In this document: positions 342 to 60,880 of the stretch, piece after piece
Numbering within the stretch: position 1 is the first letter of the stretch
How the letters are laid out: the number at the start of each line of letters is the position of its first letter
Position numbers and translations under genes: made by a program
The notes under the pieces: generated by a model
Told to the model about the DNA's origin: nothing
The model's database searches: none
Seen by the model: the letters and a program-made list of their open reading frames with translations, nothing else
Assembly: GCA_977020255.1 (NCBI GenBank)
Contig: CDROCS010002727.1
Coordinates: 496,001 to 560,000 of the forward strand
DNA length: 64,000 nt
DNA from: Obrimoposthia wandeli
Taxonomy: Eukaryota
Reading direction: 5' to 3'

Positions 342-455
342 ACAGACATACCAGAATACCCTTCGAGCGAGTCTAGTCAAGACAGCGAACCGGAAAGTAA
401 CGATACAGAATCAACAGAATCCGAAGATAACATAATAGAGCGATTCGGAAGAACC

Positions 456-2264: not shown

Positions 2265-3984
2265 AACGATGGAAGGACATAAAACATGCTTGTCCGCTAA
2301 AAATGGATTCGGAAAGTTGATGATACAAGGTAAACAGGTACAGTTGATTATCGGAAGAAATGGAATCGAGGAGATGTCAAAACAACGACAGACAACAAAA
2401 CGATCCAATCAGAAACAGATATCTCTCAAACGAATGATAATTAAAACCCTTTGCAAAAGGTCAGTCAAGGCCCTGTGCACCGTTGCACAAGGATTGATCT
2501 ACGGAGTAGTAATTCAATTAGTACTACAAGCCATGCCAACCAGTAAAGCTGAAATGATGACATTATACGAGTATAATCTACATTTGAGAAATCTAGACAA
2601 CACCCTCGAAATAATCAAGACGTCCCACAGTAAAGCCGTAAGGATCATGTGTGTAAAAGGATGTCCAGGACGAATGTGTATAGTTCCAGCGACCGAAATG
2701 AAAACACTTAATGAACATTATGGAGTTAGTATTGTCACATGTGAAGACTACACATTTGGACAAACTAAAATAGTACTTCTCAGTGACATGTCCAACCAAA
2801 GTGCACACAAATTTAAAATATTAACCATCAAGAGTAAAGGGATACCAGCAGTACGTTATGGTATTCTAGAATTGGTTAATCCAATACTCGCACTGATCAT
2901 TGGATTCATAATATTAATATTACTCATCTTGTTTTGTTGTACAAAAATAGAGTTGAGATCAAAAAAGAAACGTCATGATCTCGCAAGACGAACAGGTCAA
3001 ATGAATTTACAAAAATTCAACACAAGTATACCAAGACCACCATTTCTAGATGAACCAGCACCTGAGTACCAGCCAACGATATATGAACATATCGAGGAAA
3101 GACCGTACTATATGAGTAATTTGAGTTGTTTCATTGAAGTTCCTGAGTTTAGGAATCGAACGATCATAGGAATCATGCTAATCATACAAATTACCACTAC
3201 CAAGGCTAGTTATGAGATCATGATCAGTAAATGGAGACAAGACGTAATACGGGCAGTATACATAGAAATCCCCCTACTAAAAACAAATCACGTAGTAGAC
3301 ATTCATCTACAGACGTCAGCAACCGACAATATCGATCAGAAATTGTATGTCATCCGACAGGTCAGAATCAAGATCGACCAAAGTACACCCTACTACAAAC
3401 TGATATTATTCTATCATGAAAGAGTGTTATACCTACGGATAACAATATCAAAGAGAAAGCGGATTATCCAAAGTATCCGAACAAAGTCATTAATATTGCC
3501 TAGAGATGAGCGCATCTGGAAAATTGTCGACAGGATTATGATCACAGGTAGACGACATAAAGCCGTATGGAATTCCGTTAGAATATTTTTCAGATTACTA
3601 GAAACTGACAAAGTAACAGTATCGTGTCCCAATCCAGATGGCGGAATCAGATTCGAAATCCAAAACCAAATGTTAGTACCACATTTTAATACAGAATGTC
3701 TGTGTAATCGAATTCCCAGTAATACTACAGAGACCTCGACCATAATCATGGTAATAACAGGTGAAATATTCTACATAACTCTAAGATACCAGAACCGTCG
3801 ATTTCGTAGATCCGGTATAAGTATCAAACCCAGGAAAACCATTCCCAAAAAACCAATCCTAGTCAAAAAGAAGGCAAAAGTAAACGAAAGTAAACGCCAT
3901 TTTTCAAAAACCGAAAGTGATCAGAACAAAGACAGAAGCGAAAGAAAAAGAGCTCAATTCCAGAAACCAAAGTACAATTATTAA
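2185..3984 (+). CDS. Multi-segment membrane protein of unknown function (accessory ORF)
   Basis: 599-aa intronless ORF. Hydrophobic segments GLIYGVVIQLVLQA, ILALIIGFIILILLILFCC and IIGIMLIIQITTTKA, with a Cys-containing segment between the first two and a basic C-terminus. Confidence 0.7.
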   Translation: MPIQKDRRIYSTAMSSKYVSMEVRIIETMEGHKTCLSAKNGFGKLMIQGKQVQLIIGRNGIEEMSKQRQTTKRSNQKQISLKRMIIKTLCKRSVKALCTVAQGLIYGVVIQLVLQAMPTSKAEMMTLYEYNLHLRNLDNTLEIIKTSHSKAVRIMCVKGCPGRMCIVPATEMKTLNEHYGVSIVTCEDYTFGQTKIVLLSDMSNQSAHKFKILTIKSKGIPAVRYGILELVNPILALIIGFIILILLILFCCTKIELRSKKKRHDLARRTGQMNLQKFNTSIPRPPFLDEPAPEYQPTIYEHIEERPYYMSNLSCFIEVPEFRNRTIIGIMLIIQITTTKASYEIMISKWRQDVIRAVYIEIPLLKTNHVVDIHLQTSATDNIDQKLYVIRQVRIKIDQSTPYYKLILFYHERVLYLRITISKRKRIIQSIRTKSLILPRDERIWKIVDRIMITGRRHKAVWNSVRIFFRLLETDKVTVSCPNPDGGIRFEIQNQMLVPHFNTECLCNRIPSNTTETSTIIMVITGEIFYITLRYQNRRFRRSGISIKPRKTIPKKPILVKKKAKVNESKRHFSKTESDQNKDRSERKRAQFQKPKYNY

Positions 3985-4393
3985 GAGGACAAGAGTGAGG
4001 GGAACGATCCCACTAGATCCCAAACATCATTTCCAATCCAAAATAATAATACCTGTTCCATCAGAAACAAAACACCCAAATCCACGAATTTTTAGAAAAT
4101 CGGACATAATACATGGAAACCGATCAAAACCCATGGAAATGTCATTCGAACCGACAAACAACAAAATGAAGTATGATTATAAATCATCAGATAGCAGAAT
4201 AACAGCGGTCAATGCTCTAATTGGAATGGCCGTAGTGTCAACAGCAGTGGTTCTATTGACAATCGTGTGCGTGAAAGGCAGTCAAGTATGCCCAAGAATA
4301 CGACGAAAATGCGAAGGATTGCGATGCTGTGACACACCCACCATGGAGGAAGTGGAATTGCGACCCTTACCTCCGCCTCCCATCAAGATATGA
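3917..4393 (+). CDS. Small single-pass membrane protein; possibly the frameshifted end of the 2185-3984 ORF
   Basis: TM segment AVNALIGMAVVSTAVVLLTIVCV, juxtamembrane Cys residues and a PLPPPP tail. Overlaps the preceding ORF by 68 nt. Confidence 0.6.
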   Translation: MIRTKTEAKEKELNSRNQSTIIKRTRVRGTIPLDPKHHFQSKIIIPVPSETKHPNPRIFRKSDIIHGNRSKPMEMSFEPTNNKMKYDYKSSDSRITAVNALIGMAVVSTAVVLLTIVCVKGSQVCPRIRRKCEGLRCCDTPTMEEVELRPLPPPPIKI

Positions 4394-4515
4394 TAAGTCA
4401 GAGGAGATTGTAGATAATTAATGTATGAAATATGTAGAAATACCTAGAAGCAATTGTACAAATAGTAGAAATATATAAAACTCATGTAGAAATTAATCAT
4501 CATCATGTATTTAGA

Positions 4516-4815
4516 ATGGCCGAAGAATGCCCAATATGTTTGGAAGATCTAACCGAACGAAGAACAAGACCCGAAACCTGCAACCATTTACACCACGAGG
4601 AATGTTTATCGACATGGATCAGAACTTATGGACAGTTCGGACATCCAACATACCCTTGTTGCCCTGTATGCAGAAGACAATTCGCAAGATTCATCATGTT
4701 AGAACCCAACCAAGAGGATGTATATGTACAAGTGGTATTCTGTTGGAAGAATTTCGGAGAGTGTTGGTGTTATTACTGTTTGTCAGAACGACAAAATCCG
4801 ACCACTTTTGTGTAA
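4516..4815 (+). CDS. RING-H2 zinc-finger protein 1 (putative E3 ligase)
   Basis: CPIC...CNHLHHEEC...W...CPVC (C3H2C3), plus a C-terminal CWKNFGECWCYYC. Confidence 0.9.
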   Translation: MAEECPICLEDLTERRTRPETCNHLHHEECLSTWIRTYGQFGHPTYPCCPVCRRQFARFIMLEPNQEDVYVQVVFCWKNFGECWCYYCLSERQNPTTFV

Positions 4816-4875
4816 ACATCACACAATCACCAGTCCTCAATCGAGCCCAAATTCAACATCAACCCTCTCACAGTA

Positions 4876-5181
4876 ATGTCTGGAGAATGTTCCATCTGCT
4901 ACGAGAGCATCGTGGACTTCTACACCAAGCCCAACAACTGCGACCACCTTTTCCACATCGAATGCCTCGAGACGTGGATCCCCATCGCCAACAGCAACAA
5001 TCCCCTCGACTTCCCAACCTGCCCGATGTGCAGAGCGACCTTCTCAGTGCACTACGTGTACAACCAGGACAGCCTCCAAGCAGTGGTACCCATAGTACAC
5101 TGCTGGAAAACAATCTGCGATTGCTGGTGCTCGTTCTGCGTAGAGGAGCGACGCACAGGCCAGCCCAACTCCCAACAATAA
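4876..5181 (+). CDS. RING-H2 zinc-finger protein 2
   Basis: CSIC...CDHLFHIECLETW...CPMC, plus a C-terminal CWKTICDCWCSFC. Clear paralogue of RING1. Confidence 0.9.
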   Translation: MSGECSICYESIVDFYTKPNNCDHLFHIECLETWIPIANSNNPLDFPTCPMCRATFSVHYVYNQDSLQAVVPIVHCWKTICDCWCSFCVEERRTGQPNSQQ

Positions 5182-5535
5182 TCGAAGGTAACTTTCTGAC
5201 TTTGAACGTGACATCATGAACTACCCTGTGTATCGCATACCGCGATAAATTAGCTACCATAATTGTAATCATAATTGTATAATCTTGTGGAAACTGTAAA
5301 TTGACCATTACCATTTTTATGTATGTTGTTTAACTGAAATTGTAATTATTATACTGAAATTCTAAAAGACAATTTTTTTTATGCCTAGTGTGAGTGTGTA
5401 AACATGCCTAAAATCGGAACAAAACTCGGTAGGATTAAAAAACTAAGGGTTCGTTTTGAACTAAAATTTTAACCTTATAAATTAACGACGAAAACAGTTG
5501 AACCCCAAGTTGAAAGGAATTATTTTCTTGTGCAG

Positions 5536-6033
5536 ATGAAGTGTTCAGTCTGCCTGGAGAAAATTTGGACGGCATCGGCATCCCCTGTCGGCTGCCGTCA
5601 CAAATTCCACGAGTCGTGCCTCTATACTTGGGCCCGACTTCGACCCGAAGGCCACGTCACATGTCCGTTGTGCCGTGCTCCCTTCGCGGAGTGGACACTA
5701 CAATGTCGCGGACGCCACAAGGGCACTCATTCGCTCACCAGCTGTATTGGTGGCGAACATTGCCAATGCCCCGACTGCATCGCGCGCCGTCGCGACGCGA
5801 AACTCGCCCTCCGAGAGAAATGGCGATCAACCCGTGACTGCCGCTCATGGCAACGTGGTCGCCAAATATGGATCCAGAACCGCGGGGTCCACGGGAGATA
5901 CACGACCCTCTTCCACCCCAATCAGCACCTCAGCATGCCCCAGCAGATGGCCCTGTTCAACGGCAGGACTCCATCATATCCGGACCTACCACTGGAGCAG
6001 GTCTTGCTGTTCTTGAGAGACAGAAACAATTGA
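5536..6033 (+). CDS. RING-H2 zinc-finger protein 3 with a basic C-terminal extension
   Basis: ATG at 5536. CSVC...CRHKFHESCLYTW...CPLC, plus CIGGEHCQCPDC. Confidence 0.88.
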   Translation: MKCSVCLEKIWTASASPVGCRHKFHESCLYTWARLRPEGHVTCPLCRAPFAEWTLQCRGRHKGTHSLTSCIGGEHCQCPDCIARRRDAKLALREKWRSTRDCRSWQRGRQIWIQNRGVHGRYTTLFHPNQHLSMPQQMALFNGRTPSYPDLPLEQVLLFLRDRNN

Positions 6034-6296
6034 CAAATCCTTGACAATCACCCTTGATCCTTTCCCTTGTATAATTTTTAGTTTGACGTAGTAATAGTGT
6101 ATAAATTGAGACGTGTTCCAAATTATGCATTATAATTCCCACTAAAAACCGGGTTTTGGAAATTTTTTTTTTGGGCATGTTTGATGAATTGAATGACTGA
6201 TTTTTGTAGGGATGGACCTAAAATCAACAGCCAGAGGCTTATAAGAGTAAAATCGATACGTTCCGGGGACGTAACTTTTTTGGAACCCCCGAGATA

Positions 6297-8147
6297 TGTT
6301 AGATTTAGGAATTGAGAAATTATTAAAAAATTAAATAATTTATACTAAAATAAAATCCTTGAAAGCAAGGTTGAAAATTAAATATTTAGAAATTAAGTTA
6401 AAATATTAGGACTAAAATAAGGGGTAAATATTAAGAGGACAACGAAGGTCGTGTGTAGTGTGTTGTATATAAAGGTTAATTAGAAAATATTAAAGTGCAA
6501 AAAGAAATCAGCAAACAAAAAATTAGATTACCCAACTACGAAGAAATTATTCAGTCAACCACGTCGTCAGTCAATCAATAACGAACGTCAACAATTCCAC
6601 GTCAGCAACAGCTGTTTCGTGAGGTGAGTGACGATTTGTAATTCAGAAACTAACCATTGTCTTACAGGACTGCGAAAAGGGAGAGAAGAATAACTGAGTC
6701 AATCGATTTACAGAAATCAGCCAACCAGAGGAGCAAGACTATATATGTCTGAAATTATTATTATTGGGAAATAGAAATAACAATCATTGTCAAAAAAGTA
6801 GACGTAAGAAGAGGAACCATTCAAAAGAAAAAGAGAGAAGAAGAACAGACGCCACAAATTAGCCACAGATTATCAATACAATCATCATCTCGATAATTGC
6901 AGCACTCTTCCGAATTACGGCAAAACAGAGACGAATTGCAGCAAGAAAACAAGAAAAGTAAGAAAACCGCGACCTCATTTAGAAAAATTAAAAAAGGATT
7001 CGTGCAGAAACTGCGTCGGATATCGAGTTCTCGAGTTCACCGCTCTTGACCCGCGAACTTACGGAAGGGAAACCAGGAACCCCTAGACTCTATCTTTCGC
7101 TGCAGATTGGAAGGTGAGAAAAAATTGTTAGAAACTATATTGGATTCGCTAAGCGAAAGTTTTGAGACATTTAGTCTGATTTTGCTAATTTGAATTTTAA
7201 TAATTGTTTTGGGACATTTAGTCCGAATTTGTTAATTTGAATTTTAATAATTGTTTTGAGACATTTAAGTCCGAATTTGCTAATTTGAATTTTAATAATT
7301 GTTTTGAGACATTTAAGTCCGAATTTGTTAATTTGAATTTTAATAATTGTTTTGAGATATTTAGTCTGATTTTGCTAATTTGAATTTTAATAATTGTTTT
7401 GGGACATTTAGTCCGAATTTGTTAATTTGAATTTTAATAATTGTTTTGAGACATTTAAGTCCGAATTTGTTAATTTGAATTTTAATAATTGTTTTGGGAC
7501 ATTTAGTCCGAATTTGTTAATTCGAATTTTAATAATTGTTTTGAGACATTTAAGTCCGAATTTGTTAATTTGAATTTTAATAATTGTTTTGAGACATTTA
7601 GTCCGAATTTGTTAATTTGAATTTTAATAATTGTTTTGAGATATTTAGTCTGATTTTGCTAATTTGAATTTTAATAATTGTTTTGAAGCACTAGTCTGAA
7701 TTGTTAATTTGAATTTTAACTAAACTGAACTATTCCTAGTTAGAGCCACAGCTCTCTAAAATCAACCCCTATTTTCAGAATACGACTCTAGTAATAGAAA
7801 CAAACATAAACTAAAATCGATACGTGGTTCATCCCCACTTGTTGTAGAGACTTACAGAAGTCTTAGGAATTTTTACGATACTTTTTAGAAAATACGTACA
7901 TAAACGTATTGTTGTGTTTTAGTTTCGTGAGTTACCAATAAACGATTTCCTACATTAGAACAAGTTGTTTTTGAACCCCTCAGATTAAGAGACGTCAAAC
8001 CAAACACCTTCAGATAAGCAATAGAGATAGGCAACCATAACACTAAGTAGGCCACGACCAACTTTAAGACCTGCTTCTATTCGAACTCACGTTGGGGCCC
8101 TCCGCACACAAGAGGATCTATACAAGTCTCGTATAGAAACCCCAACA
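6297..8147 (+). mobile_element. Long LTR (~1.85 kb), likely the 3' LTR of a large retroelement carrying the ORFs at 1-6033
   Basis: TGTTAG...CCCAACA termini. Both ends are homologous to 61875-63941 (reverse strand), and the 3' end to 34850-34912, which is followed by a tRNA PBS. Confidence 0.8.
7160..7720. repeat. Minisatellite inside the LTR, 47-48-bp unit, about 12 copies
   Basis: Unit ttttgagacattta(a)gtccgaatttgttaatttgaattttaataattg, head-to-tail with no spacers. Confidence 0.95.
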
Positions 8148-20937: not shown

Positions 20938-21475
20938 AGAAGTATAAAGTGTCGGTTCTAAAACAATAGCACACAAAGCCCCCCCCCGAACAAGGCACAA
21001 AGAACAAAGCACATCTGGAATTCGCTTAGTCATACAGATGTGCTTTGTTCCTTGTGCCTTGTTCGGGGGGGGGGGCTTTGTGTGCTATTGTTTGAGAACC
21101 GACACTTTACGTTTTGAAATTTGATTGGTCTTATGCGTCACTTACGATTATGTAGGTTAATATTCTGTAACATTAAGTATATAGTTCAAAAATTTTAATT
21201 CAAAATTAAAAAATTAAATTAAAAAATTAAAAAATTAAATATTGAAATTAAAAAATAAAATATGGAAATTAAAAAATTAAAATTTTAATTCAAAAATGAA
21301 ATATGAAAAAATTAAAATTTTGAAATTAAACACAATTTACCGTCCCAAATTTTTATTTGCAACTATTTAATTTACTTAGTACTGCGACCTCATTCCAGGA
21401 GTTAGACTGCCCCGCATAACCGGACCGCTATCGCAGTTTTTATCATAAGAAACGTTATTGTTTATAGTAGGAGTC
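20938..21475 (+). repeat. Left TIR: 165-bp hairpin (20945-21109), AT-rich tract and 55-bp structured motif
   Basis: Reverse complement of 30439-30970, with a few substitutions and indels. Confidence 0.95.
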
Positions 21476-21530
21476 CATATTTATATAATGAAGAAAGCAA
21501 AGTAACATCGATAAATATATATTAGCACAA

Positions 21531-22310
21531 TTATAAGCGAACTTGTCCATCAGTAATTTTCCAGATTGGTTTATGAAGACCTGTACAGTTGATTTTGTAT
21601 CCCTGTATTGAAATGACGATCATCCACTTGAGTCCAGTTCCCATATTGTCAACATTAAAGTCGTGATCTCGCATGAAAAGATTAGGATCAGCTCGAATTA
21701 TTATATGATTCCCAACTATAATGTTGAGATGCATCGACGCGAAAGTTTTGTTAAGATCATCAATATCTGACGGATTTAATCTATGTATCTTGAAATCGTA
21801 TTTTGACTTATTCAGAGCCACCGGAAACATGAATCCATATATGATTGGAGTCTTCAAAAAATTCATTTGCCAGTTATAAAACATAACCGGCTTGGTGTAC
21901 TTCAAATTGTTAGACTCAAATATTACACCTGATGGTCTATTGTTAATGAACGGTTTCTTATGTTTGTGTGTAGAAACTATATCATCAATAAAGAGATCCT
22001 CATTTGTTGCTTGCTTCTCAAAATTGATAGTCTTGGTTTGTTTGTGGTTGTTGCTTGTCATAGTTTGCTTCTTTGGTTTTGATATTAAAACTACATCATC
22101 ATCATCGGTATCCACATCTGTGTCTGTAAGCCTTGTTGGTGGGGGCTTCTCGAACTTAAGAGATTTAGTTTGTTTAGAGTTCATATCAAAATAATGAATT
22201 CTATACCAAAAGTGGTAGCTTATATATATCATCATACTCGATTCTGATTGGATAATCTTTAGCTTAAAAATTTTATATATAGATTGGGTTATTTCCATTA
22301 ATTCAATCAT
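21531..22310 (-). CDS. Element ORF A, unknown (probable start MNSKQ at 22183); possible ssDNA-binding/OB-fold protein
   Basis: Intact ORF with an acidic/basic N-terminus and a beta-rich C-terminus (KWMIVISIQGYKIN...KPIWKITDGQV). The function is only a guess. Confidence 0.55.
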   Translation of the reverse strand: MIELMEITQSIYKIFKLKIIQSESSMMIYISYHFWYRIHYFDMNSKQTKSLKFEKPPPTRLTDTDVDTDDDDVVLISKPKKQTMTSNNHKQTKTINFEKQATNEDLFIDDIVSTHKHKKPFINNRPSGVIFESNNLKYTKPVMFYNWQMNFLKTPIIYGFMFPVALNKSKYDFKIHRLNPSDIDDLNKTFASMHLNIIVGNHIIIRADPNLFMRDHDFNVDNMGTGLKWMIVISIQGYKINCTGLHKPIWKITDGQVRL

Positions 22311-22800
22311 GAATCTTGCAAATATTAATTATAAAGGTAAAGTTAAAGGAGACATCAGTCACTTACCCTTCAAAACCGGGAAACCATGTCAGTACGTGCA
22401 CAGGTGTAAGGATTATACCCTTATAATCTTCCGTTCAGGTATGTTTTTATGTTAGTTAGTTAGTTATTTATTATTAGGAGCATGCAGGATAATGGGTTGC
22501 AAGAAACATATTACTACAACTATGCTCAAGTGTCCATTTAGAATAAAGATTGATCGTATTCAATCAGTAACGGTTACTGTCGATTTAGGTAAGAAGGTGA
22601 ACCTATACAAGTTGTCTCAAAAGTGTGGAGCTGCATGCATGTTCGAACCTGAGTTGTTTCCTGCTTTGAGGTTTACAAAACACAATCCTCTGTGCGTCAA
22701 CATATTTGCAAGCGGGAAAGTGGTCATACTCGGTCTCAAGGATTTGGATTATCACTTTGATGTGACTTTGATAATAACTGATATTCTACTTTTGATATAA
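22309..22800 (+). CDS. Minimal TATA-binding-protein-like gene, two exons (22309-22438 and 22478-22800)
   Basis: Removing a 39-nt GT..AG intron gives YTLIIFRSGACRIMG (TBP repeat 1, cf. ALIFSSGKMVCTG). Repeat 2 reads FEPELFPAL...VNIFASGKVVILGLK (cf. YEPELFPGL...LIFVSGKVVLTGAK). Confidence 0.88.
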
Positions 22801-22842
22801 ACAATAAATTTTAGTTGAATTTTTATTCTTACATGATTTGAA

Positions 22843-23121
22843 ATGCTAGTTGATTATATACTTCATTATACAACTGTTGATGATGTTTTAGTTAGACGAA
22901 AAGTAGGTTATTCTAGAATGAAAGTTTTACACTGGAAATATAGACCGGAGGCTAAGGAAGCTTTAGGTACAGTTGTTAAAATTATTAAAAATCGACGTAA
23001 ACGTAAAGCAAGTGAAGCAGCACAAACGGTTGAACCCGAAACTAAAAAGCAAGAGGGTAGTGGTAGAAAGAAAGCATCTAGTATAAATAAACGAAGAAAA
23101 CAAGGTACAATATTTGCTTAA
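22843..23121 (+). CDS. Small basic protein, candidate virion core/DNA-condensing protein
   Basis: Arg/Lys-rich 92 aa immediately upstream of MCP, containing QEGSG (GxG, a possible protease site). A syntenic relic lies at ~57510-57780. Confidence 0.5.
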   Translation: MLVDYILHYTTVDDVLVRRKVGYSRMKVLHWKYRPEAKEALGTVVKIIKNRRKRKASEAAQTVEPETKKQEGSGRKKASSINKRRKQGTIFA

Positions 23122-23123
23122 TA

Positions 23124-24386
23124 ATGGCTTGTGGTAAATCTGAATTATGTATTTTTGATCGAGCTTTGCCCCAGGTAGTTGTAAATAATGGTAGCTTTGA
23201 AGATATATATCCAACAAACAATATTACCGGAACAAGAACATCAGAGATTCTGTTTAAAATCCAAGTATCAGATATTGAGTACTTAGATTTGAATGATACC
23301 TTGTTGTTTGTGAAAATAAAAGTAACGAAAACTGATGGTACAGAAATAGCTGTTGCAGATAATGTGGTCCCATCAAATTTCTTGATGCATTCCCTATTTA
23401 AAAGCATAGATATAACAATGAATAATACTGTAGTATAAACCCATCCTCAATATGCACAAAAAGCTATGATTGAAACCATACTAAACTATAGCACAGACAC
23501 TAAAGACACTTGTTTGTCGAGTATAGGTTATGATGATGATGAAGATAAGCGTAAAGGTTGGGCTGCTCGCTCAAAAGAAATTGACTTGTGTGGGACTCTT
23601 CGATCTGATATTTTTGAGCAACCAAAGTATCTCTTACCTGGTGTGTCTATCATGGTAAGACTTGTACCTAATAAATCTATGTTTAGTCTGAACTACGGAA
23701 CGACTCTATCGCGAATCATATTTATTGAAGCTAAACTTAAAGTCAGAAGAGTCAGAGTTGAGAATGATGTTTTAATGGGACAAAATATTGGTCTTGAATC
23801 TAGGAATGCTGTATATCCCTATACTCACAGAAAGCTAATGTATCATACCTTAGCCATCGGTTCTACGAGTTTTTACAAGGATCAAGTGTTTGATGATGAA
23901 CAATTGCCTAAATTTGTGTTGATTACGTTGCAAGCAGGTGAAAAACTTATCGGTAATGGTGCTACAGACTCTTCAACATTCGATCATTCTAATGTTAACA
24001 CTATCAGTCTTGCTAGAAACAGTGATTTTAACGAATCTTACAGTACAAACTTGAAACAGGTGAAACCACCTTTGCATATGTCCAATCTATCATTAGAAAT
24101 ATGGGTAATTTGGATAAGAATATAAACAATGGCGTATCACTGGATGAATTCAAAACCAAATATCCATTTTCCACGTATCACTGGATGAATTCAAAACCAA
24201 ATATCCATTTTTCACGTTTGTTTAGCCCCTGACTTTGATATCACGCAAAACCAATTAGCAAAACAGGGTAATTTACGCCTTGACATCAAGTTTCACAAGT
24301 CATTAACAGTCCCAACAAACGTACTGATTTACGGGATTTTTGATTCTGAGTTTGAAATAACTAAAGGCCGACGTGTGATTGTATGA
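23124..24386 (+). pseudogene. Maverick major capsid protein (double jelly roll), disrupted
   Basis: CGKSELCIF...EILFKI...EYLDLNDTLLFVKIKV...HSLFKSIDIT...IETILNY...DIFEQPKYLLPGV...KLKVRRV...LPKFVLI...FTFVLAPD...GNLRLDIKF...VLIYGIFD. In-frame TAA at 23436, frameshift near 24052, 41-bp duplication at 24133-24216. Confidence 0.9.
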
Positions 24387-24767
24387 AGTGAGTTTTTTTA
24401 ATTTATGTTTTAAGATTTTATTAACAACAAGTAATGTTCAGGTGAATGAAATAACTAGTTTGCTGCTCGGACCGCGATTTAAGGGTGTATACCCGTTGGA
24501 AAAAATCCCAACATTAACGCCTAGATGATATATTGTCAATACACTGACCTCAAATCTTCCTGGAGAACACTGGATTGCGTTATTCGTGAGACAGAATTCT
24601 GTACATGTGTATGACCCTCTTGGAGTATACTATCCGGGAAAACTTATCAAGCATGTAGAGTCTCAAGGAAAACATGTATATTACAACAAAATTCGTTCTC
24701 AAAACCCACTGACTACTAATTGCGGTCCACTATGTATCTTATGGTTGTATGATCAAACTATATAAAT
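24383..24767 (+). pseudogene. Adenain-like cysteine maturation protease, spliced (exon 1 24383-24387, intron 24388-24431)
   Basis: MNNVQVNE...FKGVYP...IVNT...PGEHWIAL...YDPLG...QNPLTTNCGPLC gives the catalytic H, D, Q and C. One in-frame TGA. The ATG overlaps the MCP stop codon. Confidence 0.88.
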
Positions 24768-25182
24768 GTGATTGGTAATAAAATTTGTATTCAAAAAATT
24801 TGTTTTATAAATAGCTTCAACTGTCCCATCGAAATTTTAAAAAAAATTTGAGTTTTGATAAATTAAGAGAAAATTAATGGTGTGAATTATTTTTAAAAAT
24901 TCAAAGTCTAACGGTGTGAATATCGGTTATGAAAAAATTCATAATTGATTGACCGTAATTAACCTTTATGATCACGTGTGTAGCAACTAGGGAATAAAGA
25001 GTCTTTATTACACATTCCTAGTTTGTAAGTACACACGTGATGTGTGACGTGTGCATCTAGGGCAACAACTACACTTGTGATTGTGATTGTGAACCATATA
25101 TAAACAATCAGTGTAGATTCATTTATCAATTTAATCACAATTTCCAAAAAGTAAGTATTTTGATTTTATTATTTTTATTTAG

Positions 25183-28100
25183 ATGTCAAAAATTATTGTT
25201 GCTTTCAACAGCAATAAAAGATGGACAATGAAGCCTGTAGTGGCTGATGATGATGTCGACTTGGATGCGACACCTGTTAAGAAAGGTAATTTCAATTATT
25301 ATTATTTTATTCTTTAATTTAATTTAGCAATGCGGAGTGTCACACCACCAATATCAATTGCGCCATGGCTATCAACAAAATATGATGCTCCTACTAAGAA
25401 AAGAAGCCGAAAGCAGTCAATTTCTGATGTTGAAAAGAAGAAAATGTCAAAAGTTTTTTTATCTTCTGAGAAATCTGCTCAGTCTTTACTTCCTTCTTCT
25501 TCTTCATCTTCTCATTCTCATGTTTTTCCTCCATATGACAATCATTTAAATAAACCTTTTGGGGATATAAGGGATATAAACTCTAATTCTCCCGACTGCG
25601 ATAGCTGCCCGGTAACGCGGGGCAGTCTAACTCCTGGAATGGGGTCGCAGAACAAGTTAATTAAATCAAGAGGTTACCCCTTACTTTTTAAACCAGGGAC
25701 ACCTGTTAATTCGATAGAAAATTTCGACGTAAATGAGATATACTCGGGTTTTGAAATTATCCCGTTTAAAAAATATTTTAATCAGTTAAAGAAAGTTAAA
25801 AATCAAAATATTGATTTAAGTAAACTGAAAACAGAAGGTAGGAAAGGTAAACGATTTCGTCAGAAGCTGCGTAGATTGAGAAAACTACCAGCAGATATAA
25901 CAATATTTGCAAATTTATTAGGGTCTTGCAAACCCATTAATATTAGTCCAAGTCTGAAAATTACAGATCTGGCAAATAAATTATATGAAGTCTTTGGGAC
26001 TGATCAAATTTATGTTAACCGTAATGGCATGCCCTTTGAAAGGGAAGCTATTATCGGTGATGTTTTACATGAGGGGGCTATTATCCATGTATACCCTAAA
26101 CTTCGTGGAGGAAGTAACTTATGTACATTGTACAAGTATTGCACAAACGTTAATCATGGAATAGAATGTCATAGTGTAATGCTTAAATATTATAAATTTA
26201 AAAGCGGTTTTATTTGTCCACATTGTGATGTGTTATATTGTATTGACTATCAAACATTTTATAATGATCATAAGGATCATCTGACGTATTTTAAGTCTAA
26301 AAAGTTAGCATACAAACGTAAAGTAATGAGAGTACCAACAATAGACAACAATAAAATAGCAAAAACTAATAATTTTAATGAAGAGTTTGATGTGGTAGAC
26401 TCGTGGGAACCGGATAGTGTTGTAGAAATTGATACTTATCCTGAAGTTGTAGAAATTATTGAGCCTTTAACGTCTAATGAAATCTTAAATAATAAAAATA
26501 TTGATGAACTTATAGATCAGGACGAGTTTATAACAGAAAATGATTTTTTCGACTCACTCCTAACTATTACGGATGATGACTTTGATAATATTGTTACAAT
26601 TAATTCAGATAATACATTAACTTTTAACAATCAAATAGGAGGTGCAATTCAATCAAACCTTGTTTTTGATGTTAGTGGATTAAACATGCTTAAACTATAC
26701 ATTAACGATACTATGCTAACTGAACTTACTAGCAGTATAGATGTGTTTAGTCCCTGTAAAATACAGTTTGGTGTTGAAACCGAATTTGTCAATAACGAGG
26801 GTCAACATAAAACATGGCATGTAAGCTTTAAAGCAAATATTTTTGAACAAGATTTTATCACTACAAGAACAGTTGAGCTCAACAATAAAATTGAAATTTA
26901 TAAGGATATGAGTTCTGGATGGACAGTATTTAAAATTATGTTGGAATCCTTTAAATTTACTGCACTTTCAAACGTAGCAGGATCATCATTTATAAAAACC
27001 CCGGTTGCGCTTGCTAAAACACTATCTATAGTGAACGTAAATAATACTGATGATCAGTGTTTTAAATACGCTGTTCTCAGTATCCTACACTATAAAGATT
27101 TCAATCGAAACAGACAAACAGTTGAAAACTATAATGATTATTTAAATGAACTTATATGCGAGCCTGGTCCTATGAGGATAGACTGCATCAAGGCGTTTGA
27201 AAAACTCAATAATATAGCGATAACAGTATTCTCCTATAAACCTACAAAGGTAGAGCCTCATAGTAGTCATCTAGTGTTTAAAAACCCAGATGTTAATGTT
27301 ATTTATAGAACGAGTCTTAAGCAGTGCGAAAAAGTAGTAAACTTGTTGCTGTTGGAACAGAGCGGTAATTATCACTATACTGGAATTACAAATCTGAAGA
27401 CTTTTAAATACTCAAAAATATAATGTGCGTCTCTTTTGGTGTGAGAAATGTCTTTTTGGATTTCGAACCACGATTTCATATGACAAACACAGGGCACATT
27501 GTAATATTAATACAGATTTAACAACCTTGTTTACAATGCCTAAAGAGATCAAGTGTCAGTTTTCTGACTGGTCTAAATCTATTGCGCCACCATTTGTTGT
27601 ATACGCCGACTTTGAGTCAATACTCGAGCCACATAATACTTTCAAACACATTCATAAACCAATATCTATAGGGATGATTTTGAAAAACAACACTAATAAT
27701 TCAATACAATATTTCAGTTATTACGTTCTGCAGTGTGCTAAAAACTTTGTAGATAAATTAACTGAGTTGATAAATGGTGAAGTGGCAGATTTTTGGGTAA
27801 ATAGTATTAATGTTCCTATGGTTTTTACTAATAATGACATGTTGAACTTTAGAGATTGCACTAATTGCTATCTTTGTAAAAAATTAAACGATCGTATGGT
27901 TAGAGATCATGATCATATCACGGGTAAATACTTGGGTGCGGCATGCAACAAATGCAATTTAAGTCGCAAGTTTGCAAAGAGACCGGTTTTACCTGTGGTG
28001 TTTCATAACCTTATGGGTTATGACATACATCATATTTTAAAATATGCCGACTTGAAAGGTAAATTCTTTTCAATTATCCCTAAATCAAGTGAAAAGTTCA

Positions 28101-29910
28101 TGTCCCTCCGTATAGAGATGAAGAGGGGGACATTGAAATTCATTGATTCATACCTTTTTACAACGTCAAGTCTTGAATCCTTAGTTTCATACTTGCCAAG
28201 TTGTCCTTATACTACACAATACCTAAAACCTAATATTGCAACAAGTAAGGCGGTATTTCCATATGAATATATTAGTGGTGTTGATAGGCTTATGGAGACG
28301 CAGTTACCCGCTAAATCTGAGTTTCCTTCTCGAGTCACTGATCAACAATATAATGAAGCCCTAATGATGTGGACTGTATTAGGGTGTAATACTATTAAAG
28401 ACTACATGCTTGAGTATATGAAACTTGACGTGTATCTCTTATGTGATGTTTTTGAGACCTTTAGACAGAAAGTAAGGGATGATGATAATCTAGAGGCGCT
28501 CAATTTCTTTAGTATCCCTGGTCTCAGTTGGGCTAGCGCATTAAAAACATTAGAGTATGATGTGGATTTATTGCATGATCCCGAAATGTATAACATGTTT
28601 GAGGCAGGGATACGGGGAGGGATGACTTTCATCAATAAACATTACGTTAAAACAACAGATGAAACATTCCTCCTATACATTGACATAAATAACCTATATG
28701 GCTGGGCCTTGAGTCAACCGTTACCACATACAGATTTTACATGGGTATATGACGGTTTTGAAGCGATAATTGAGCTTATAACTGAGAGGGATATTCACGG
28801 TAATATGCAGGACTTAAGTCTTAAAGAACATGGATACTTGTTGGAAATTGATTTACACATATACCCATCAGTATTCATGATAAACTTGATGACTTACCGA
28901 TTGCGCCTAATAGAGAAATCCCTCCCGGCTCAAAAGCTTCAAAGCTGTTGATGACCCATGAGGATAAAAATAATTACATCATACACTCACAACTACTACA
29001 ATTTTACTTGTTTCTGGGTGCAGAAATTAAACAAGTGCATAGAGCAATAAAGTTTCATCAAGCTCCTATATTTAAAACATATATTGATATCAATAGCCGG
29101 AAACGGGCAGAGGGTACTACTACATTTGATAAAGAGTTTTATAAACTCAAAAATAATTCAATATATGGTAAGATAGTGGAAAATCTTAAAAAACGTAAAG
29201 ATATCCGTCTTACCAAGAATGATCGTCAGTTTACTAAACTTGTTTCAAGCCCTTGGTTTAAGAAGCATACCCAAATAACCGACAATCTCAATCTTTTATT
29301 TATGCAAAAGAAAGAAATTTGTCTGGATCGACCATCATATATTGGTCAAGCTGTGTTGGACTTATCTAAACTACGTATGTACCAACTACAGTATAGTGAT
29401 CTTGACCGGTATCATAAGCAATATCATTGTGATATCAACATAGTTGCAATGGATACAGACTCGTTTTTCTTAGAGTGTAAGCATATAGATAAAGATGTCC
29501 TCTTAAAACAAATGATTAAAGATCAGATGTTAGATACGAGTAATTACCCGATCACACATGAGTTATTTAACGATTCTCATCGAAATGTGATTGGAAAGTT
29601 TAAAGATGAAAGCAAGGGGACAGTGCTTTATGATGAATGGGTATTTCTGAAACCTAAATGCTACTCATTGAAAACGAGTATGAGGGCTAAGGGTATCTCC
29701 CTTAAACAAACCGAAATCAGACATGAGCATTACATAAAGTGTTATGTTGATGATGAAATTATAACTGCCGGTCAGACACGTATTTTATCTCGTAATCATC
29801 AATTATTTACAATGTATAATGATAAAATTGCGTTAAGGTGTTATGACGATAAAAGGGTTAGGCTTGAGAAAAACAAATCCGTCGCATATGGACACTATAG
29901 TCTAAGATAG
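25183..29910 (+). pseudogene. polB: Protein-primed family B DNA polymerase polyprotein with an N-terminal ubiquitin-like domain; two frameshifts
   Basis: ATG 25183 joins ORF 25330 through a 42-nt intron (25286-25327). Motifs: SSGW...GSSFIKTP...DQCFKY, DHDHITG...AACNKC, FHNL.GYD, FIDS, FPYEY, YMKLDV, GIRGG, YIDINNLYG, KLKNNSIYGK, MDTDS, GKFKDE, KPKCY, RAKG, DDKR. Frameshifts near 27410 and 28868. Confidence 0.93.
25897..26112 (+). other. Ubiquitin-like domain (72 aa) ending in LRGG, inside the pPolB ORF
   Basis: ITIFANLLGSCKPINISPSLKITDLANKL...GAIIHVYPKLRGG follows the length and hydrophobic pattern of ubiquitin (MQIFVK...TLHLVLRLRGG). Confidence 0.75.
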
Positions 29911-30109
29911 GTGTATATAAAATCTGGGGTAACCTCTTGAAAGTATTAACTAATATCCTTCTTATTTTTAATGTGATAGTATGTATCTTTTTAAATGCAA
30001 TAGTATGTATATATTTTTAATGCTATAGTATGTATATATTTTTATTGATGTTTATTTTTAATACATTGTATGTATCATAACCATGTCTTGACTTCCTACT
30101 AGCTACTCA

Positions 30110-30421
30110 TTGGATAATTTAATCAAATTCTCTATAAATATATACACATTTCAATCAATCAATTTCTCATTATTTCAAATGACTACTTTTAAAGAAAAAT
30201 TGCAAGCTCTCTATGATAACCTGAGCCCTACCTTGATGGCCCAGTATACTGAAAAGTACTTTAACTTATTTGTTGCACCAGAACTTTTTGTCTCAAGGAT
30301 TGAAGAACTTTATATGTATCACCTGTTTAATGGAGACTTTAAACCTAAAGTTGCAACAATCATTAAAATAGAAGAAGAAGAAGAAAGCATGGATTGTGAC
30401 AATGAATATAATTATGTATAA
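30110..30421 (+). CDS. Small element ORF of unknown function (probable start MTTFKE at 30179)
   Basis: Intact ORF ending just before the right TIR; acidic tail. Confidence 0.45.
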   Translation: MDNLIKFSINIYTFQSINFSLFQMTTFKEKLQALYDNLSPTLMAQYTEKYFNLFVAPELFVSRIEELYMYHLFNGDFKPKVATIIKIEEEEESMDCDNEYNYV

Positions 30422-30438
30422 ACATAGACTTTTTACTA

Positions 30439-30970
30439 GACTCCTACTATAAACAATAACGTTTCTTATGATAAAAACTGCGATAGCTGTCCGGTTATGC
30501 GGGGCAGTCTAACTCCTGGAATGAGGTCGCAGTACTAAGTAAATTAAATAGTTGCAAATAAAAATTTGGGACGGTCAATTGTGTTTAATTTCAAAATTTT
30601 AATTTACATATTTCATTTTTGAATTAAAATTTTAATTTTTTAATTTCCATATTTAATTTTTTTAATTTCCATATTTAATTTTTTAATTTTGAATTAAAAT
30701 TTTTAATTTTTAAAATTTTTGAACTATATACTTAATGTTACAGAATATTAACCTACATAATCGTAAGTGATGCATAAGACCAATCAAATTTCAAAACGTA
30801 AAGTGTCGGTTCTAAAACAAGGCACACAAAGCCCCCCCCGAACAAGGCACAAGGAACAAAGCACATCTGTATGACTAAGCGAATTCCAGATGTGCTTTGT
30901 TCCTTGTGCCTTGTTCGGGGGGGGGGGGGCTTTGTGTGCTATTGTTTTAGAACCGACACTTTACACTTCT
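30439..30970 (-). repeat. Right TIR with hairpin at 30798-30964
   Basis: Reverse complement of the left TIR; hairpin loop tatgactaagcgaattc. Confidence 0.95.
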
Positions 30971-35299: not shown

Positions 35300-38200
35300 G
35301 GACAATTAACAGATGAAGTTGCACCAAATCATGGTATTGAATTTGTATGCCCAGCTCCAAAAGATTATCATTATAAATTAAATAATAGATAGATCTCAGG
35401 TAAAACCAAAGGTTTTGTAACTAAATATTTAGAAACATATATATTCACAATGGATAAAAAAGTAATATTAGTTTTGAACAATTCACATATTCCATATTAT
35501 CAAGGTCAAAATGAATCTTATGAATTGATAAAAATACAAAATGTAGATTGACAGGAACTGCCAATAATAATTTTAATAGAATAAAAACAATTGAACAAAC
35601 CAAAATGTATGATTTTAATTTCAATAAGAGTCAAGTAAAATATTAAGAAAATGAAAATGTGATAACTTATCTATTTAGACATTGAAAAAAAAATTATAAT
35701 ATGCACAAATTTCCTTATTTAGATTATCTTATAACTAATAATCTTGTAATTGATAATCTTTTAAATTGTAGTTATTGCAATATTGTGACAATATTAATAT
35801 TGGAACCAAAATATTTTGTTCCAGACAGTGTGAAGTAGCTTGTAAGCTAATTGAATTAAGGAAGGTTAAAAAATGCACCCAATTCAAAAAAACATTTAAA
35901 ATATTATTATAATAATGAATCATAAGAATGTCATAAAAATATTCATATGGCAATTTAATAAACAATTTAAATAATTATCAATTGTTGAAAAACTTGTTAC
36001 TTATAGAAATACTAGTAAATTACACTATTTAGCAAGAAAGAAAAATATAGAAAAATGTGATAGTATGACTTTTACCGAATTAATTGAAGCACTCATGTTT
36101 CTCGCTAAAGAATAAGATTTCCCTATTTTAATTTCAATAAGAGACAAGTAAAATATTTTAAAAATGTAAATGTAATAACTTATCTATTTTGAAATTTGAC
36201 TCCTTCTATATTATTGGATTCTTGTTTTTTAATAGCATATTTCATATTTTTCTCAATCCATATTATTTTATTATCAATTGTGACGGATTTTGATTTTTTA
36301 AAATTTACTAATTCTCTCAAATTTTCTATCGTTGGATTTGTCATTTTCTTCTTTTTTTCTTTAAGAAATAAAATCTTTAAAAATGACATTTTTTCCAATT
36401 TGGACTAAAGATAAAAGTACTTTTAATAATAGTATTTTTTCATCAAATTTTGAACTTTTAATTATTGGATCATCAGGTTGTGGTAAAAATGTTCTCTTGA
36501 TGAAAATGTTGTTTACAAAAGATTTTCTTGATTATAACAATCTTAACTCAACAACTATAAATCAAAAAGAATTAACAAATTGTAAAAGAAGGATTTGAAA
36601 ATGGATTGACAAAAAAGCTATAATTAATATATTTGAAAATTAAGATAGTTTTACTAATGAATTAAGTACAACAAGTGATATTTCATAATATTAGAAAATC
36701 TGATATGAATAATAAAGAAGAATATGTGAATGAATCAGAAAAAAGTAATGTTTTCTTTTCTAATAAATCTGATAGTGATTTTCTTCCTAAGGATAAAAAA
36801 ATCATATTATATTTGTTGATGTTGTAAATATTAAAAATCAAGAAATACAGAAGTCTTACGTCACTAGACAATATAATATTTGTAATGTAATTTATATTTC
36901 TCAAAATTATTATAGTCTTGATAAAAACACAGTAAGAAATAATTCTAATTGTTGTGTATTTTTTTAACTTGTTAAGAGAGATAAGGATATGGGATATAGT
37001 GATTTATTTTCAAATGTTGAACCTGATAAATTTATGTTTGATCAATTTACTGCAAATCATTGGAAGAAAAATATAGTTATATTTTCTTGGATAGAGAAGG
37101 AAGACATTATGGAAGATTTGTTCTGAAGAAATTCATTTATAGGCTTAATTTATCATTTGTAGTCTAAATCTATCATTTGAGCTCTAAATTAATCTTTTAC
37201 GGCTCACATCCCTAGAAAAGAGACCAAATCATGATTTTTAAATATTTCTCTAAAAAATGATGACTATTGAAAATATGAATTATTTATCTAATTATTTATC
37301 TAATTTTTTAGATAAATATAAAAATGTTCAAAATTTTGATACTAATCTGATGCAGAAATATGCTAAAATGGAAACGCTTGATAGATTTACTCAGGTTAAA
37401 CTTGTGTATCCTCATTTGACTCAAGAACAGATAGCTAAGAAAATTGGTTCTTCTGTTACTACATTGAAAAGAATTAGAGCAGATCTAAATACTAAGAATT
37501 TTTATCATTATGATGTTAGACTGAAAAAATCAAATGAAGTTCATAATCCTGAAGATCAATTAAAGTATCAATTTTGTCCAAAGATTTCTAAGATTTCAAA
37601 GATTCGTTTGGCTATAGAACTCATTTTAGAAGTTGTAAGTATTTTAAAAATATGAAAGAAATTACTTAAAAGACAATCACTAAATCAACAACAAGCTCAG
37701 CAAGTTCCTATGAATACAATAGGAGGAACTGGATTGGATTTTGCTACTTCATTAAAATCAAAAAATAATAAGAAGAAAAATAAAAATAATGGTAGAATCC
37801 TTGAGAATGATGAGGATAATGATGATAATATATATAATATGATAAAATAAAATTCTAAACTTAAATTTTATCTTATTCTTAAATTTTATCTTTTAAAATG
37901 GAAGATAAACTTGCGAAAGGAGATGAAGAAACTAAAATTATTATTAAAGAAAGAGTTAGAATTTTCGATGAAAGGAATTTATGTACTCAATCATCTATGG
38001 GTAAAGAATTAATTATTAATAGTGAATTAATTAAAAAGTCAATGGAGTTGCCAGGTGATACAATTTATGATTTTGAACAATGAATCAATCGAGACAGTTG
38101 ACAAATTATTTTTTTATAATAATATAAAATAATAAATATTGGAATAGATATCGAAATAAATATTAAAGTAATTACACATATATTTTTTCGTACTAATTCT

Positions 38201-57026: not shown

Positions 57027-58400
57027 ATGAAACTCTCAAATATCAATTATAAAGCACATACTACTCAATATATTGGAAATCTAACATTTAGTACTACAAA
57101 ACCAAGTCAATATATAGAAAAACATAAATATTATACTTTAGTTATTTTCAAATCAAATATTAATTTGAGATATTAATAGGAAGTTGTCGATTAATGAGGT
57201 ATAAGAAACCAGATACAAACTAGAATTTACAATATGGTATACAAATAGAGAGAAAATAATCAGTAACAATGGATATTGGAAAGAAAATCAATTTACATTA
57301 TTTATCAATGAAATTAGGATCTGGTTGTATATTCAAACCGGAATTATTTGCACTCAGATTAAATAAATATAATCCATTATGTGTTAACGTATTCTCAAGT
57401 GGAAAGATTATAATAGTTGGACTTAAAGATTTGGATTATTATTATGATGTTAATTGTTTCAAATATATTGCTTTTGTTATAAGCGTATAATGTATAATCA
57501 AAATTTGAAAATGATTAATAATAATGATGAATTAGTTGAGAACACAGTTGATGAAAAAATGTCCGGAACTATATAGGGCACTTGGTATTTTTCAGAATTA
57601 TAAAATTCAATCGAGGTAATATTCGTTCAATTGTCAGAAGTTGAGTAAATCAAAATATCAGATACAAGAAAGAAGTTCCGAAAAAAGAAATCTGCATCTA
57701 AGAGACCATCACAAGCGGAAAGTAAGCAAGAAGGCAGTGATAGTATAAATAAAAGATGGTAAAAAGATACAATAATTGAGTAAAATGACAACCGCATGTG
57801 GTAAATCCGAATTGTGTTTGTTTGATAGACCAGCCCCTCAATTTATAGTTGAGAATGGATGTTTTGAAGACATTTATCCGATTAATACAATGAACGATAA
57901 CAAATATATCTGAAATTGAATTTAAAATTGAATTTAAAATTTCAGGTTCTGATGTAGGATATCTTGATTTGAGTGATACAATGTAACATGTAAAAAATAA
58001 AGTTGTTAAAAAGGACGGTACACCACTAAATGAAGCTGATAATATTACACCAGTTAATTGTTTAATAATATTACACCAGTCATGTTTCATAGACTGTTTA
58101 TAAACTTGGAAGTTTCATTGAATTCTGAGAAAATAGAAGGTGGGAATGATATGTAGGCTGTAAAATCAATGATAGAAACCATTCTTAATTATGGTACCGA
58201 TACTAAAGAAATATTTCTTTCATGTATTGGATATGACTCTGATCCAGATGAATGTAAAAAGTGGATTTCTCGATCAACTGAGTTTTAAATGTGTGGTTCA
58301 AAGTTCGATCTGATTTTTTTGAGCAACCTAAATATATTTTGCTTGGTATTTATGTGAGATTGGAATTTGTATTTAATAATCCTCAAGTAAGCCTTTACAT
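57027..58400 (+). pseudogene. Relic B of the TBP-Maverick family: TBP-like gene, small basic ORF and MCP N-terminal half
   Basis: MKLSNINYK...YTLVIFKS; KPELFAL...CVNVFSSGKIIIVGLKDLDY; MTTACGKSELCLFDRPAPQ...FEDIYP at 57785. Same gene order as the intact element. Confidence 0.85.
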
Positions 58401-59489: not shown

Positions 59490-60880
59490 TGATTTGGAAT
59501 TCAATATTCAAGGCAATGACGATAGTTATTTGGATTTGAAAGATACATTGCTACATATCAAAGTTAAAGTAACTAAAGCTGAAAGAACTGAATTACAAAA
59601 ATAGTGTTGTTAGAGCCAATAACTATATGTTTCATAAAATGTTTAAAGATAGTTTACTAACTTTAAATAATATGAAAATTGAAAAAGGAAATAACTCATA
59701 TTGTCAAAAGGTATTGCTTGATACTCTATTCAGTTTATTAAAGAAACAAAAGAAACTAATTTACGATGTAATAGTTTTGATTCTAATGAAAGCAAATTTG
59801 ATTCTTGGTAAGCTAAATCTAAACCTTTTGAGATTTGTGGATCACTACGATTGGATTTCTTTGATCAACCAAAGTATCTTATACCGGGAGTAAATGTACA
59901 TTTACGATTAATAAGAAATAATTTTAGTTTTTCATTGGTAACAACAAATGTTGAAACTAAACCTATTTTACAAATTTTAGATCCCAGATTGTATGTTAGA
60001 CGAGTAAGGGTTAAAATTTCTGTTTTTATTTGTCGTCAATTGGGGTTGTAAATTCAAAATGCAGTATATCCAGTTAGAAAAACGTAGCTTATTAGTTATT
60101 CAAAATATAAAGTGCTATGGCAATGTTTTAAGATCAATTATTCGGAGACTATTCGTTACCTAAATTGATTATTGTATGATTTCAATCTAAAGATAAACTT
60201 TCTGGGAGTCTTATTACTGATAACTCAACTTTTAATCATTTTAATGTTTCTGATATAATTTTAACAAAGAATAATGATTTTCTAGAAACATATACAATAA
60301 ATTTCGATAATGATAACTATTGTTTTGCTTATACAAAATCACTGATACGTAATATGGAAAATGTGGATAGAATTCAAGCTATAGTATTACGTTTGATGAT
60401 TTTAAAAATAGTTATTCTCTTTTTACATTGGTTTTGGCTTCTGAGTTTGACATAAACACTACTTAAATACTAAAGAATGGGAATCTTAAACTCAAAATAA
60501 AATTTGCTACTGTTCTTGTTTCTCCTACAAGTGTTTTAATTTATGTAATTTTTGATTCTGAAATCCAAATTACAAGAACTAAAACTGTGATTATATGAAG
60601 TACTTTTTTAAATTTATAAAATTATTAATTATTTATTTTTAGTACTCTAGAAATTATAAAATCAGTAAAAATTCTGATCGATGATGCATTTATTGGAGTT
60701 TATTTGCTTGATAAAATACCATATCTCTGTGATGGTGGTTAAATCATCAATACTCATACAAATAATCTCCCAGATGAACATTGGATTGATATTTATGTTA
60801 ATAACAGTTAAATTAAAGTATGTGATCCTCTCGGTTTCTATTATCATCTTAAGCTGGTATCATTTATTTCTAAACAAAGT
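59490..60880 (+). pseudogene. Relic C of the TBP-Maverick family: MCP and spliced protease
   Basis: LEFNIQG..DSYLDLKDTLLHIKVKV, DFFDQPKYLIPGV, GNLKLKIKF...VLIYVIFDSEI; then ATGAA/gt..ag/T giving MNTLEI...FIGVY...NLPDEHWI. Confidence 0.85.

Follow-up and report, generated by a model that had tools for sequence, protein, structure and literature searches.

Animal Polintons or Mavericks (adintoviruses, Eupolintoviridae) are described, in the text available from PMC8097293, PMC8502044 and 10.1101/2022.07.12.499685, as ~15-kb elements with AG..CT terminal inverted repeats and a 6-bp target-site duplication, whose common genes encode a protein-primed DNA polymerase B (pPolB), an rve integrase with a chromodomain, an A32-type ATPase, an adenain-type protease and a double-jelly-roll (DJR)-like capsid protein; an IAP accessory gene has been noted in adintoviruses. 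The element analyzed here, a defective Polinton in 64,000 nucleotides of the Obrimoposthia wandeli assembly GCA_977020255.1 (contig CDROCS010002727.1, positions 496,001 to 560,000, forward strand; this whole stretch is called the window, and coordinates count from its first base), belongs to a family that has these features in common with them, the DJR fold of its capsid being suggested, but it differs from the described elements in that its protease and polymerase genes carry introns and in that it encodes a 150-amino-acid (aa) TBP-like protein, TBP appearing in those texts in a figure legend only. The core genes of vertebrate and nematode Mavericks are described as intronless (PMC8502044, 10.1101/2022.07.12.499685, as far as their text goes), and animal Polinton surveys have recognized intact elements by their intronless open reading frames (ORFs) (PMC8097293, same scope).

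Spliceosomal introns inside Polinton-class elements are, however, reported from the introner-bearing eupolintoviral proviruses of dinoflagellates, where they are young, transposon-derived insertions acquired mostly after integration, whereas the protease intron described below is old, position-conserved and not recognizably repetitive (text of PMC12166617). Adenoviruses, as related linear dsDNA viruses, likewise use the host spliceosome, assemble their pTP from two coding exons and have a protease gene that follows the capsid gene on mRNAs common to both, with the same gene order as here; their splicing is long-range and alternative from few promoters, whereas the window introns are short, seem to be constitutive and are of the minimal size for the host (text of PMC11304566). 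Flatworm micro-introns resemble them in form, being ~37-45 nt long with a peak at 37 bp, equipped with strong splice sites and clustered at the 5' ends of genes, but they are described for host genes, and those studied here lie in a mobile element (text of PMC6530080). A literature search confined to main texts returned no report of position-conserved spliceosomal introns in animal Polinton core genes, with the limit that spliced genes could already be on view in Starrett's genome maps or in Repbase entries. The text available from PMC11296320, PMC12220804, PMC6431247, 10.1101/2023.08.22.554363, 10.1101/2024.03.25.586562 and 10.64898/2026.10.13.758929 mentions no spliceosomal introns in Polinton genes, and its mentions of introns are mostly of self-splicing ones.

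Results

On comparative evidence, four short segments in the window Polinton are spliceosomal introns of the U2 type. A sequence-only reading had proposed them as AT-rich GT..AG stretches, and all four are indeed present, each starting with GT and ending with AG (Table 1), with GC fractions of 0.18, 0.18, 0.12 and 0.10 for introns 1 to 4. The TBP and polymerase segments reach a stop when read in the frame of the upstream exon, and the length of the protease segment is not divisible by three. It was further claimed that removal of the coding segments restores conserved frames; the frames are conserved, but they are not open from end to end in this copy, where stops or frameshifts disrupt the capsid, protease and polymerase genes.

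Taken alone the pattern is weak. A simple filter found nine intron-like matches (six acceptors) on the + strand of the element against 1.12 +/- 1.06 in 300 block shuffles (maximum 5), but it had been tuned on these very segments, and the rest of the AT-rich window yields 3.7 and 2.7 matches per 9 kb, so that the case rests on homology and conservation. The abundance of such strings also speaks for a reading in which the segments are AT-rich spacers or dead insertions that are never spliced, with the proteins starting at internal Met codons or not being made. We regard this as very improbable, since the terminal GT and AG are fixed while the bodies between them diverge, both among copies of the window family and across eight protease lineages. 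In keeping with splicing, the exons flanking introns 1 and 2 are collinear with intronless homologues; intron 4 is supported by frame alone, and intron 3 lies outside coding sequence. Lack of coding support led us to set aside the other filter matches in the window (24775-24814 and 29979-30028, plus two on the - strand). In the ~5 kb missing from the window copy, the coding strand of eight fuller copies holds no recurrent intron-like segment.

Many copies of the window Polinton are present in the genome. For its family, called A, two first-look sets of 867 and 1521 candidates were obtained from 1.35 Gb and the best 40 of each were scored; family B comprises the kin of a second element in the window, relic B (with a second B-type lineage in locus L120), and family C is the young family nearest to a third, relic C (78-79% DNA identity).

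Intron 2 splits the second codon (Asn) of the protease gene. It was found in 23 of 23 family A copies, at 42-44 nt, and its recurrence in relic C, as proposed from the sequence, is borne out: there the intron at 60600-60642 is preceded by ATGAA and followed by T, at the site and in the phase of 24388. Among 20 kin of relic C, 13 of the 18 that could be parsed combine the protease intron with an intact start codon and donor. Within the genome the intron occurs in three families. It also extends well beyond it. Of 52 metagenome loci, seven carry the intron (five lineages: L200, L201/L202, L203/L217, L207 and L208), 42 have a continuous Met start and three are cut off. In all eight intron-bearing lineages it measures 38-43 nt, occupies the same site and splits the Asn codon, although the proteases are only 43-58% identical and the intron bodies are mostly unalignable (2 of 28 pairs above z 2). 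Position conservation across copies, named beforehand as a check, thus held for the protease site in 8/8 lineages as well as within family A, where intron 1 is equally constant (28/28 copies).

These observations bear on a second alternative, namely that the segments entered the element, as introner-type or other insertions, only once it had integrated in this host. Introners are reported in full-length eupolintoviral proviruses, with ~90% of tested pairs fitting secondary insertion (text of PMC12166617), and the observation of introns 3 and 4 in family A alone would suit such an origin. Each intron, however, is present in every parsed family A copy and so predates the expansion of the family; the four window introns do not look by eye like members of one repeat family; and the sharing of a single protease site by three lineages of this genome and five from elsewhere, with bodies that mostly do not align, is hard to derive from late insertion. 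No shared body was seen among the orthologous protease introns, a comparison that did not include a genome-wide search for intron copies. We therefore hold post-integration acquisition to be quite improbable overall, and an introner origin of intron 2 is unlikely.

The spliced protease start predicted from intron 2 agrees with that of its relatives. Met-Asn is the commonest beginning among protease homologues (49/150), and a G(V)(Y/F) motif lies at residues 17-23 in 102 of 135 of them, the spliced prediction here placing it at 20. The five best-scoring database proteases start abnormally: three carry an extension of intron-like residues and two are shortened to an internal Met, which is what ORF callers would produce by running on into the intron or by passing over it to a later Met; such starts occur in 7 of the top 12 relatives versus 24 of the other 138. 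The claim that ORF-based annotation misses such genes is to this extent confirmed for the protease start. That exon 2 of the family A protease contains no Met is a further point against unspliced segments.

As had been noted from the sequence, the protease start codon (24383-24385) overlaps the capsid stop codon (24384-24386). The exact ATGA arrangement is found in 2 of 10 intron-bearing and 5 of 37 intronless loci, and the two codons lie within -4 to +2 nt of each other in nine of the ten intron-bearing loci; the overlap reflects tight packing, is compatible with reinitiation and is not a feature linked to the intron. Separately, an ATAAA motif lies ~70 nt upstream of the protease ATG, in the tail of the capsid gene, in 19 of 37 intronless loci (L209-L247) and 0 of 10 intron-bearing ones; at this site the intronless loci use ATA for 26 of 32 Ile codons. 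It is possibly an internal promoter for the protease, the comparison being one of one clade against another.

Intron 1 interrupts a conserved Gly codon of the TBP-like gene, the product of which corresponds in profile matches to one repeat of cellular and archaeal TBPs. In the 28 family A copies the intron is 35-45 nt long, falls into all three length classes and keeps GT in 27 and AG in 28. Of 49 database homologues, some of which could derive from RNA assemblies, 34 match both exon halves and 15 lack a match to exon 1; exactly one residue, mostly Gly, separates the halves in 32 of the 34. Although an early Met in exon 2, where six database calls begin, would suit a protein made without splicing, the segment sits exactly inside one conserved codon, which argues for its removal. 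The suggestion that the acceptor recurs in relic B is upheld in that the acceptor is there and the donor is lost; among 20 family B copies 13 of the 19 parsed retain the donor at the same site, and L120 also has the intron there. The junction is continuous, without intron 1, in 5/5 family C copies and four external loci. A TBP gene tree of 43 rows calls for at least two changes and is too weak to order gain and loss.

Introns 3 and 4 lie at the 5' end of the polymerase gene. Intron 3 (40 copies) shows GT in 39 and AG-ATG in 40, spans 32-50 nt in 14 lengths, and has its donor, nearly always GTAAGT, 53-54 nt from a TATA-like motif in 40/40. The first coding exon occurs in nine lengths, all of them 1 mod 3 in the 34 copies parsed (6/40 unparsed), one with a stop. 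Intron 4 (34 copies) measures 39-48 nt, with GT in 33 and AG in 33, and its eight lengths fall into all length classes; the exon is in frame in 34/34 versus 26/34 for the intron (Fisher p 0.005), and 16 of the 34 copies have no ATG just after it. The polymerase of family C has neither the leader nor either 5' intron, introns 3 and 4 being seen in family A only, and family B is too decayed to score.

The position of intron 3, its AG directly before the ATG, is where a third alternative has most purchase: that some acceptors serve spliced-leader trans-splicing or joining to a distant leader, as in adenovirus late mRNAs. Flatworms do trans-splice (text of PMC6530080), the genes are packed head to tail, and in an adenovirus all transcripts are spliced, with the protease downstream on capsid mRNAs (text of PMC11304566). 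Yet the GT donor of intron 3 is all but invariant and held at a fixed distance from the TATA-like motif, and without the five-base exon next to it the protease acceptor would have no start codon, save where a leader brought one in phase 2, so that we rate leader use as improbable, though the least so of the alternatives to removal in cis.

The intron-bearing proteases belong to one lineage of capsids. In a tree of 24 capsid rows, all eight intron lineages form a clade of nine together with L199 (100/100); the larger set of 42 rows, of which the 24 are a subset and which excludes near-duplicate loci and capsid pieces <140 aa, recovers the same clade (SH-aLRT 100), and none of its 33 outside rows carries the protease intron. 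L199 and L204 lie within the clade with a continuous protease start and no intron. The interior of the clade does not resolve, and an approximately unbiased (AU) test retains the eight intron lineages as a possible group (p 0.42); on the simplest reading the intron was gained once and lost once at most. At least 71 capsid clusters score >=372 bits against the window capsid (71/120 among the clusters listed), clade membership having been tested for nine tree rows. L199 (1830-3500) and L204 (660-3300) also carry, on the - strand between protease and polymerase, a gene with at least four intron-like segments of 40-45 nt, the 5' part of which resembles a Cys/His-rich segment of the window polymerase N terminus (E 6e-9); on this account the clade looks generally intron-tolerant, with turnover.

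The family-wide spliced program envisaged by the sequence-only reading therefore survives in part. Conservation of the protease intron reaches far beyond the window, but one shared set of introns is not supported: the TBP intron is missing from family C and the external loci, the polymerase introns were seen in family A alone, the protease start of L199/L204 is continuous, and the exact ATGA overlap is a minority arrangement.

The host is a probable free-living flatworm. In a multi-copy mitochondrial COX1, four positions that are Asn in the second animal COX1 of the assembly read AAA, in agreement with NCBI table 9, the code of rhabditophoran flatworms and echinoderms; we take this divergent sequence to be of flatworm origin. 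Nuclear mitochondrial insertions (NUMTs) of the table-9 type, 89-92% identical, occur on three Polinton-bearing contigs. The assembly is mixed, with the second animal mitochondrial type (G000:C5352 and many other contigs) and dozens of bacterial-type COX1 genes, which makes the assignment probable and not certain. Two paralogous host kinesin loci contain a 39-nt AT-rich intron of similar look and another whose length, 40-54 nt, varies with the choice of acceptor. Comparison with host intron size, proposed earlier as a check, thus finds the element's introns compatible with the host, but a match to the modal size is not established: 3 of 36 sampled host introns are <70 nt and the median is ~410, by a method that under-detects short introns and a sample that may mix two animals.

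Table 1. Features of the window Polinton and of two relics in the window (strand and remarks where given).
Feature	Coordinates	Strand	Remarks
Polinton/Maverick copy, family A	20938..30970		6-bp target-site duplication at flanks; defective, internally deleted
Left terminal inverted repeat	20938..21475		internal palindrome
Stop-to-stop ORF	21534..22328	-	no Pfam match; C-terminal half also in families B and C
TBP-like gene, exon 1	22309..22438	+	43 codons plus one base
Intron 1	22439..22477	+	39 nt, phase 1, within conserved Gly codon
TBP-like gene, exon 2	22478..22800	+	PF00352 E 2.7e-13
BIR/RING gene start fused to end of 140-aa ORF	22843..23121	+	fused across ~5-kb deletion
Major capsid gene	23124..24386	+	intron-free; DJR-like by Atlas features
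Protease exon 1	24383..24387	+	start codon plus two bases; overlaps capsid stop
Intron 2	24388..24431	+	44 nt, phase 2, splits codon 2 (Asn) of adenain-type protease
Protease exon 2	24432..24765	+	premature stop in this copy; PF00770 E 0.0047, under curated cut-off
TATA-like motif and putative non-coding first polymerase exon	25097..25150	+	promoter function putative
Intron 3	25151..25182	+	32 nt, in putative 5' untranslated region; ends at polymerase ATG
Polymerase first coding exon	25183..25285	+	34 codons plus one base
Intron 4	25286..25327	+	42 nt, phase 1
pPolB main exon	25328..29910	+	PF03175 E 7.4e-20, PF02945; two frameshifts in this copy
80-codon ORF	30179..30421	+	no Pfam match
Right terminal inverted repeat	30439..30970
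Relic B TBP-like gene	57027..57454	+	acceptor retained (57178-57179), donor lost
Relic C protease	60595..60880	+	43-nt intron, same site and phase as intron 2

By the features tested, with the capsid fold suggested, the element is a Polinton/Maverick (Eupolintoviridae-like). Its terminal repeats are ~530 bp each with AG..CT ends, full family A copies measure 15.0-15.2 kb, and seven of eight other copies examined have matching 6-bp flanks. The window copy lacks ~5 kb at a junction near 22945, an interval that in other family A copies encodes the A32/FtsK packaging ATPase (PF04665 E 3.7e-07 in one of them), the integrase-chromodomain protein (PF00665 E 1.3e-12) and a putative minor capsid protein; the BIR/RING gene is present in fuller copies. 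The minor capsid candidate, a 391-aa ORF after the integrase, is assigned as a putative single jelly roll by position and a sequence motif and has no diagnostic profile match. The window capsid gene is disrupted by one stop, one frameshift and a short duplication, and has no significant match in Pfam, NCBIfam or PDB and none in phage records; an Atlas feature score of 0.98 to clusters with PF21738 on 22-30% of their members, the recognition value lying below threshold, suggests a double-jelly-roll fold. Across 20 relatives the protease His is invariant, and the Asp, Gln and Cys are nearly so. Scans of viral contigs gave four weak, unrelated-looking protease matches, and none for the protease alignment, the TBP alignment or the capsid.

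Each terminal repeat contains a near-perfect palindrome (20970-21082 and 30832-30936) that could form a long hairpin, and a 71-nt copy of the inner terminal-repeat segment lies inside the polymerase gene (25595-25665, 86% identical to 30477-30547). In the polymerase leader (25843-26118, absent from family C), a segment without Pfam match, which we take from a sequence motif to be ubiquitin-like, ends in LRGG, a possible protease cleavage site. Family C (L109-L118) also differs in layout: its left end is taken up by the polymerase, which is encoded on the opposite strand and faces an intronless TBP-like gene head to head. Elsewhere in the window, a compact cluster of long ORFs at 342-6033 (+ strand; dual-specificity phosphatase, a 604-aa ORF, RING-finger ORFs) may be another virus-like insert, and tandem arrays at 62204-63256 and 7111-7727 (periods 58 nt and 47/48 nt) lie within an inverted-repeat pair (6238-6315 / 63923-64000). 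By eye and from sequence motifs, we take 36400-37100 to be a decayed P-loop ATPase-like stretch and 61150-61850 a decayed piggyBac-like transposase.

Discussion

We consider it very likely, from the comparisons presented here, that the four segments are ordinary U2-type micro-introns, part of the Polinton's own gene structure and copied with the element, which would be transcribed in the nucleus of its host, a probable flatworm. The host spliceosome would remove them in cis, their 32-50 nt lying within the flatworm micro-intron class. Transcription would be by RNA polymerase II (Pol II) from TATA-like motifs, the polymerase mRNA starting after its motif, losing introns 3 and 4 and initiating translation at 25183; service of these promoters by the element's own TBP-like protein is a candidate role only. 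For the protease, the most likely template is an mRNA that spans the capsid gene, with ribosomes reinitiating where the stop and start codons abut; this is the weakest step of the scheme. The protease intron would go back to a single gain at the base of the clade or close to it, and selection would have maintained it since, as the start codon is located upstream of the intron. Lineage-restricted gains or losses would account for the TBP and polymerase introns, so that the clade would turn over 5'-proximal introns rather than share one set.

Several observations weigh against this interpretation. No spliced read was seen, and splicing itself rests on sequence comparison; the four sequencing runs listed, none of them RNA (contigs from one sample), show similar depth over genes and spacers and no intron match among 15 of 80 joints listed, and are uninformative either way. 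The copies are related best matches to the window, so their counts are not independent, and homopolymer assembly errors may inflate the variation in intron length. Intron 2 of family A ends in AAG, a weaker acceptor. An in-frame ATG follows intron 4 in the window copy and in 18/34 copies overall, as unspliced segments would also allow; the varying first-exon length is mostly a GAT repeat that slips in threes anyway, which weakens the frame test; and intron 3 admits no coding test. The capsid tree cannot tell loss of the intron in L199 from branching before its gain. Host identity rests on the mitochondrial code and the NUMTs in three Polinton-bearing contigs, and the scarcity of short introns in the host sample leaves a mode near 40 nt not established.

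We conclude that this variant of a known element class is real and old and uses introns. The core ORFs of its lineage fall outside the intronless criterion of PMC8097293, which in the text of that survey is operational and not taxonomic, and spliced lineages would by such a mark be scored as decayed or mis-annotated. A protease intron held at one site across such divergent elements implies that Pol II has long transcribed these elements in the nucleus and that selection has favored a working maturation protease, and thereby bears indirectly on whether Polintons make particles. With their patchy occurrence, the TBP and polymerase introns offer a small and testable case of how a DNA virus lineage gains and loses introns, and the hosts of metagenomic elements may become easier to assign from intron size. 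More speculatively, and to our minds doubtful, a large, widespread clade may have rewired expression of its maturation protease, losing the upstream ATAAA and placing the start codon behind a micro-intron so that synthesis depends on host splicing. If so, the splicing dependence of the protease could gate capsid maturation and bind the clade to hosts able to splice introns of 40 nt.

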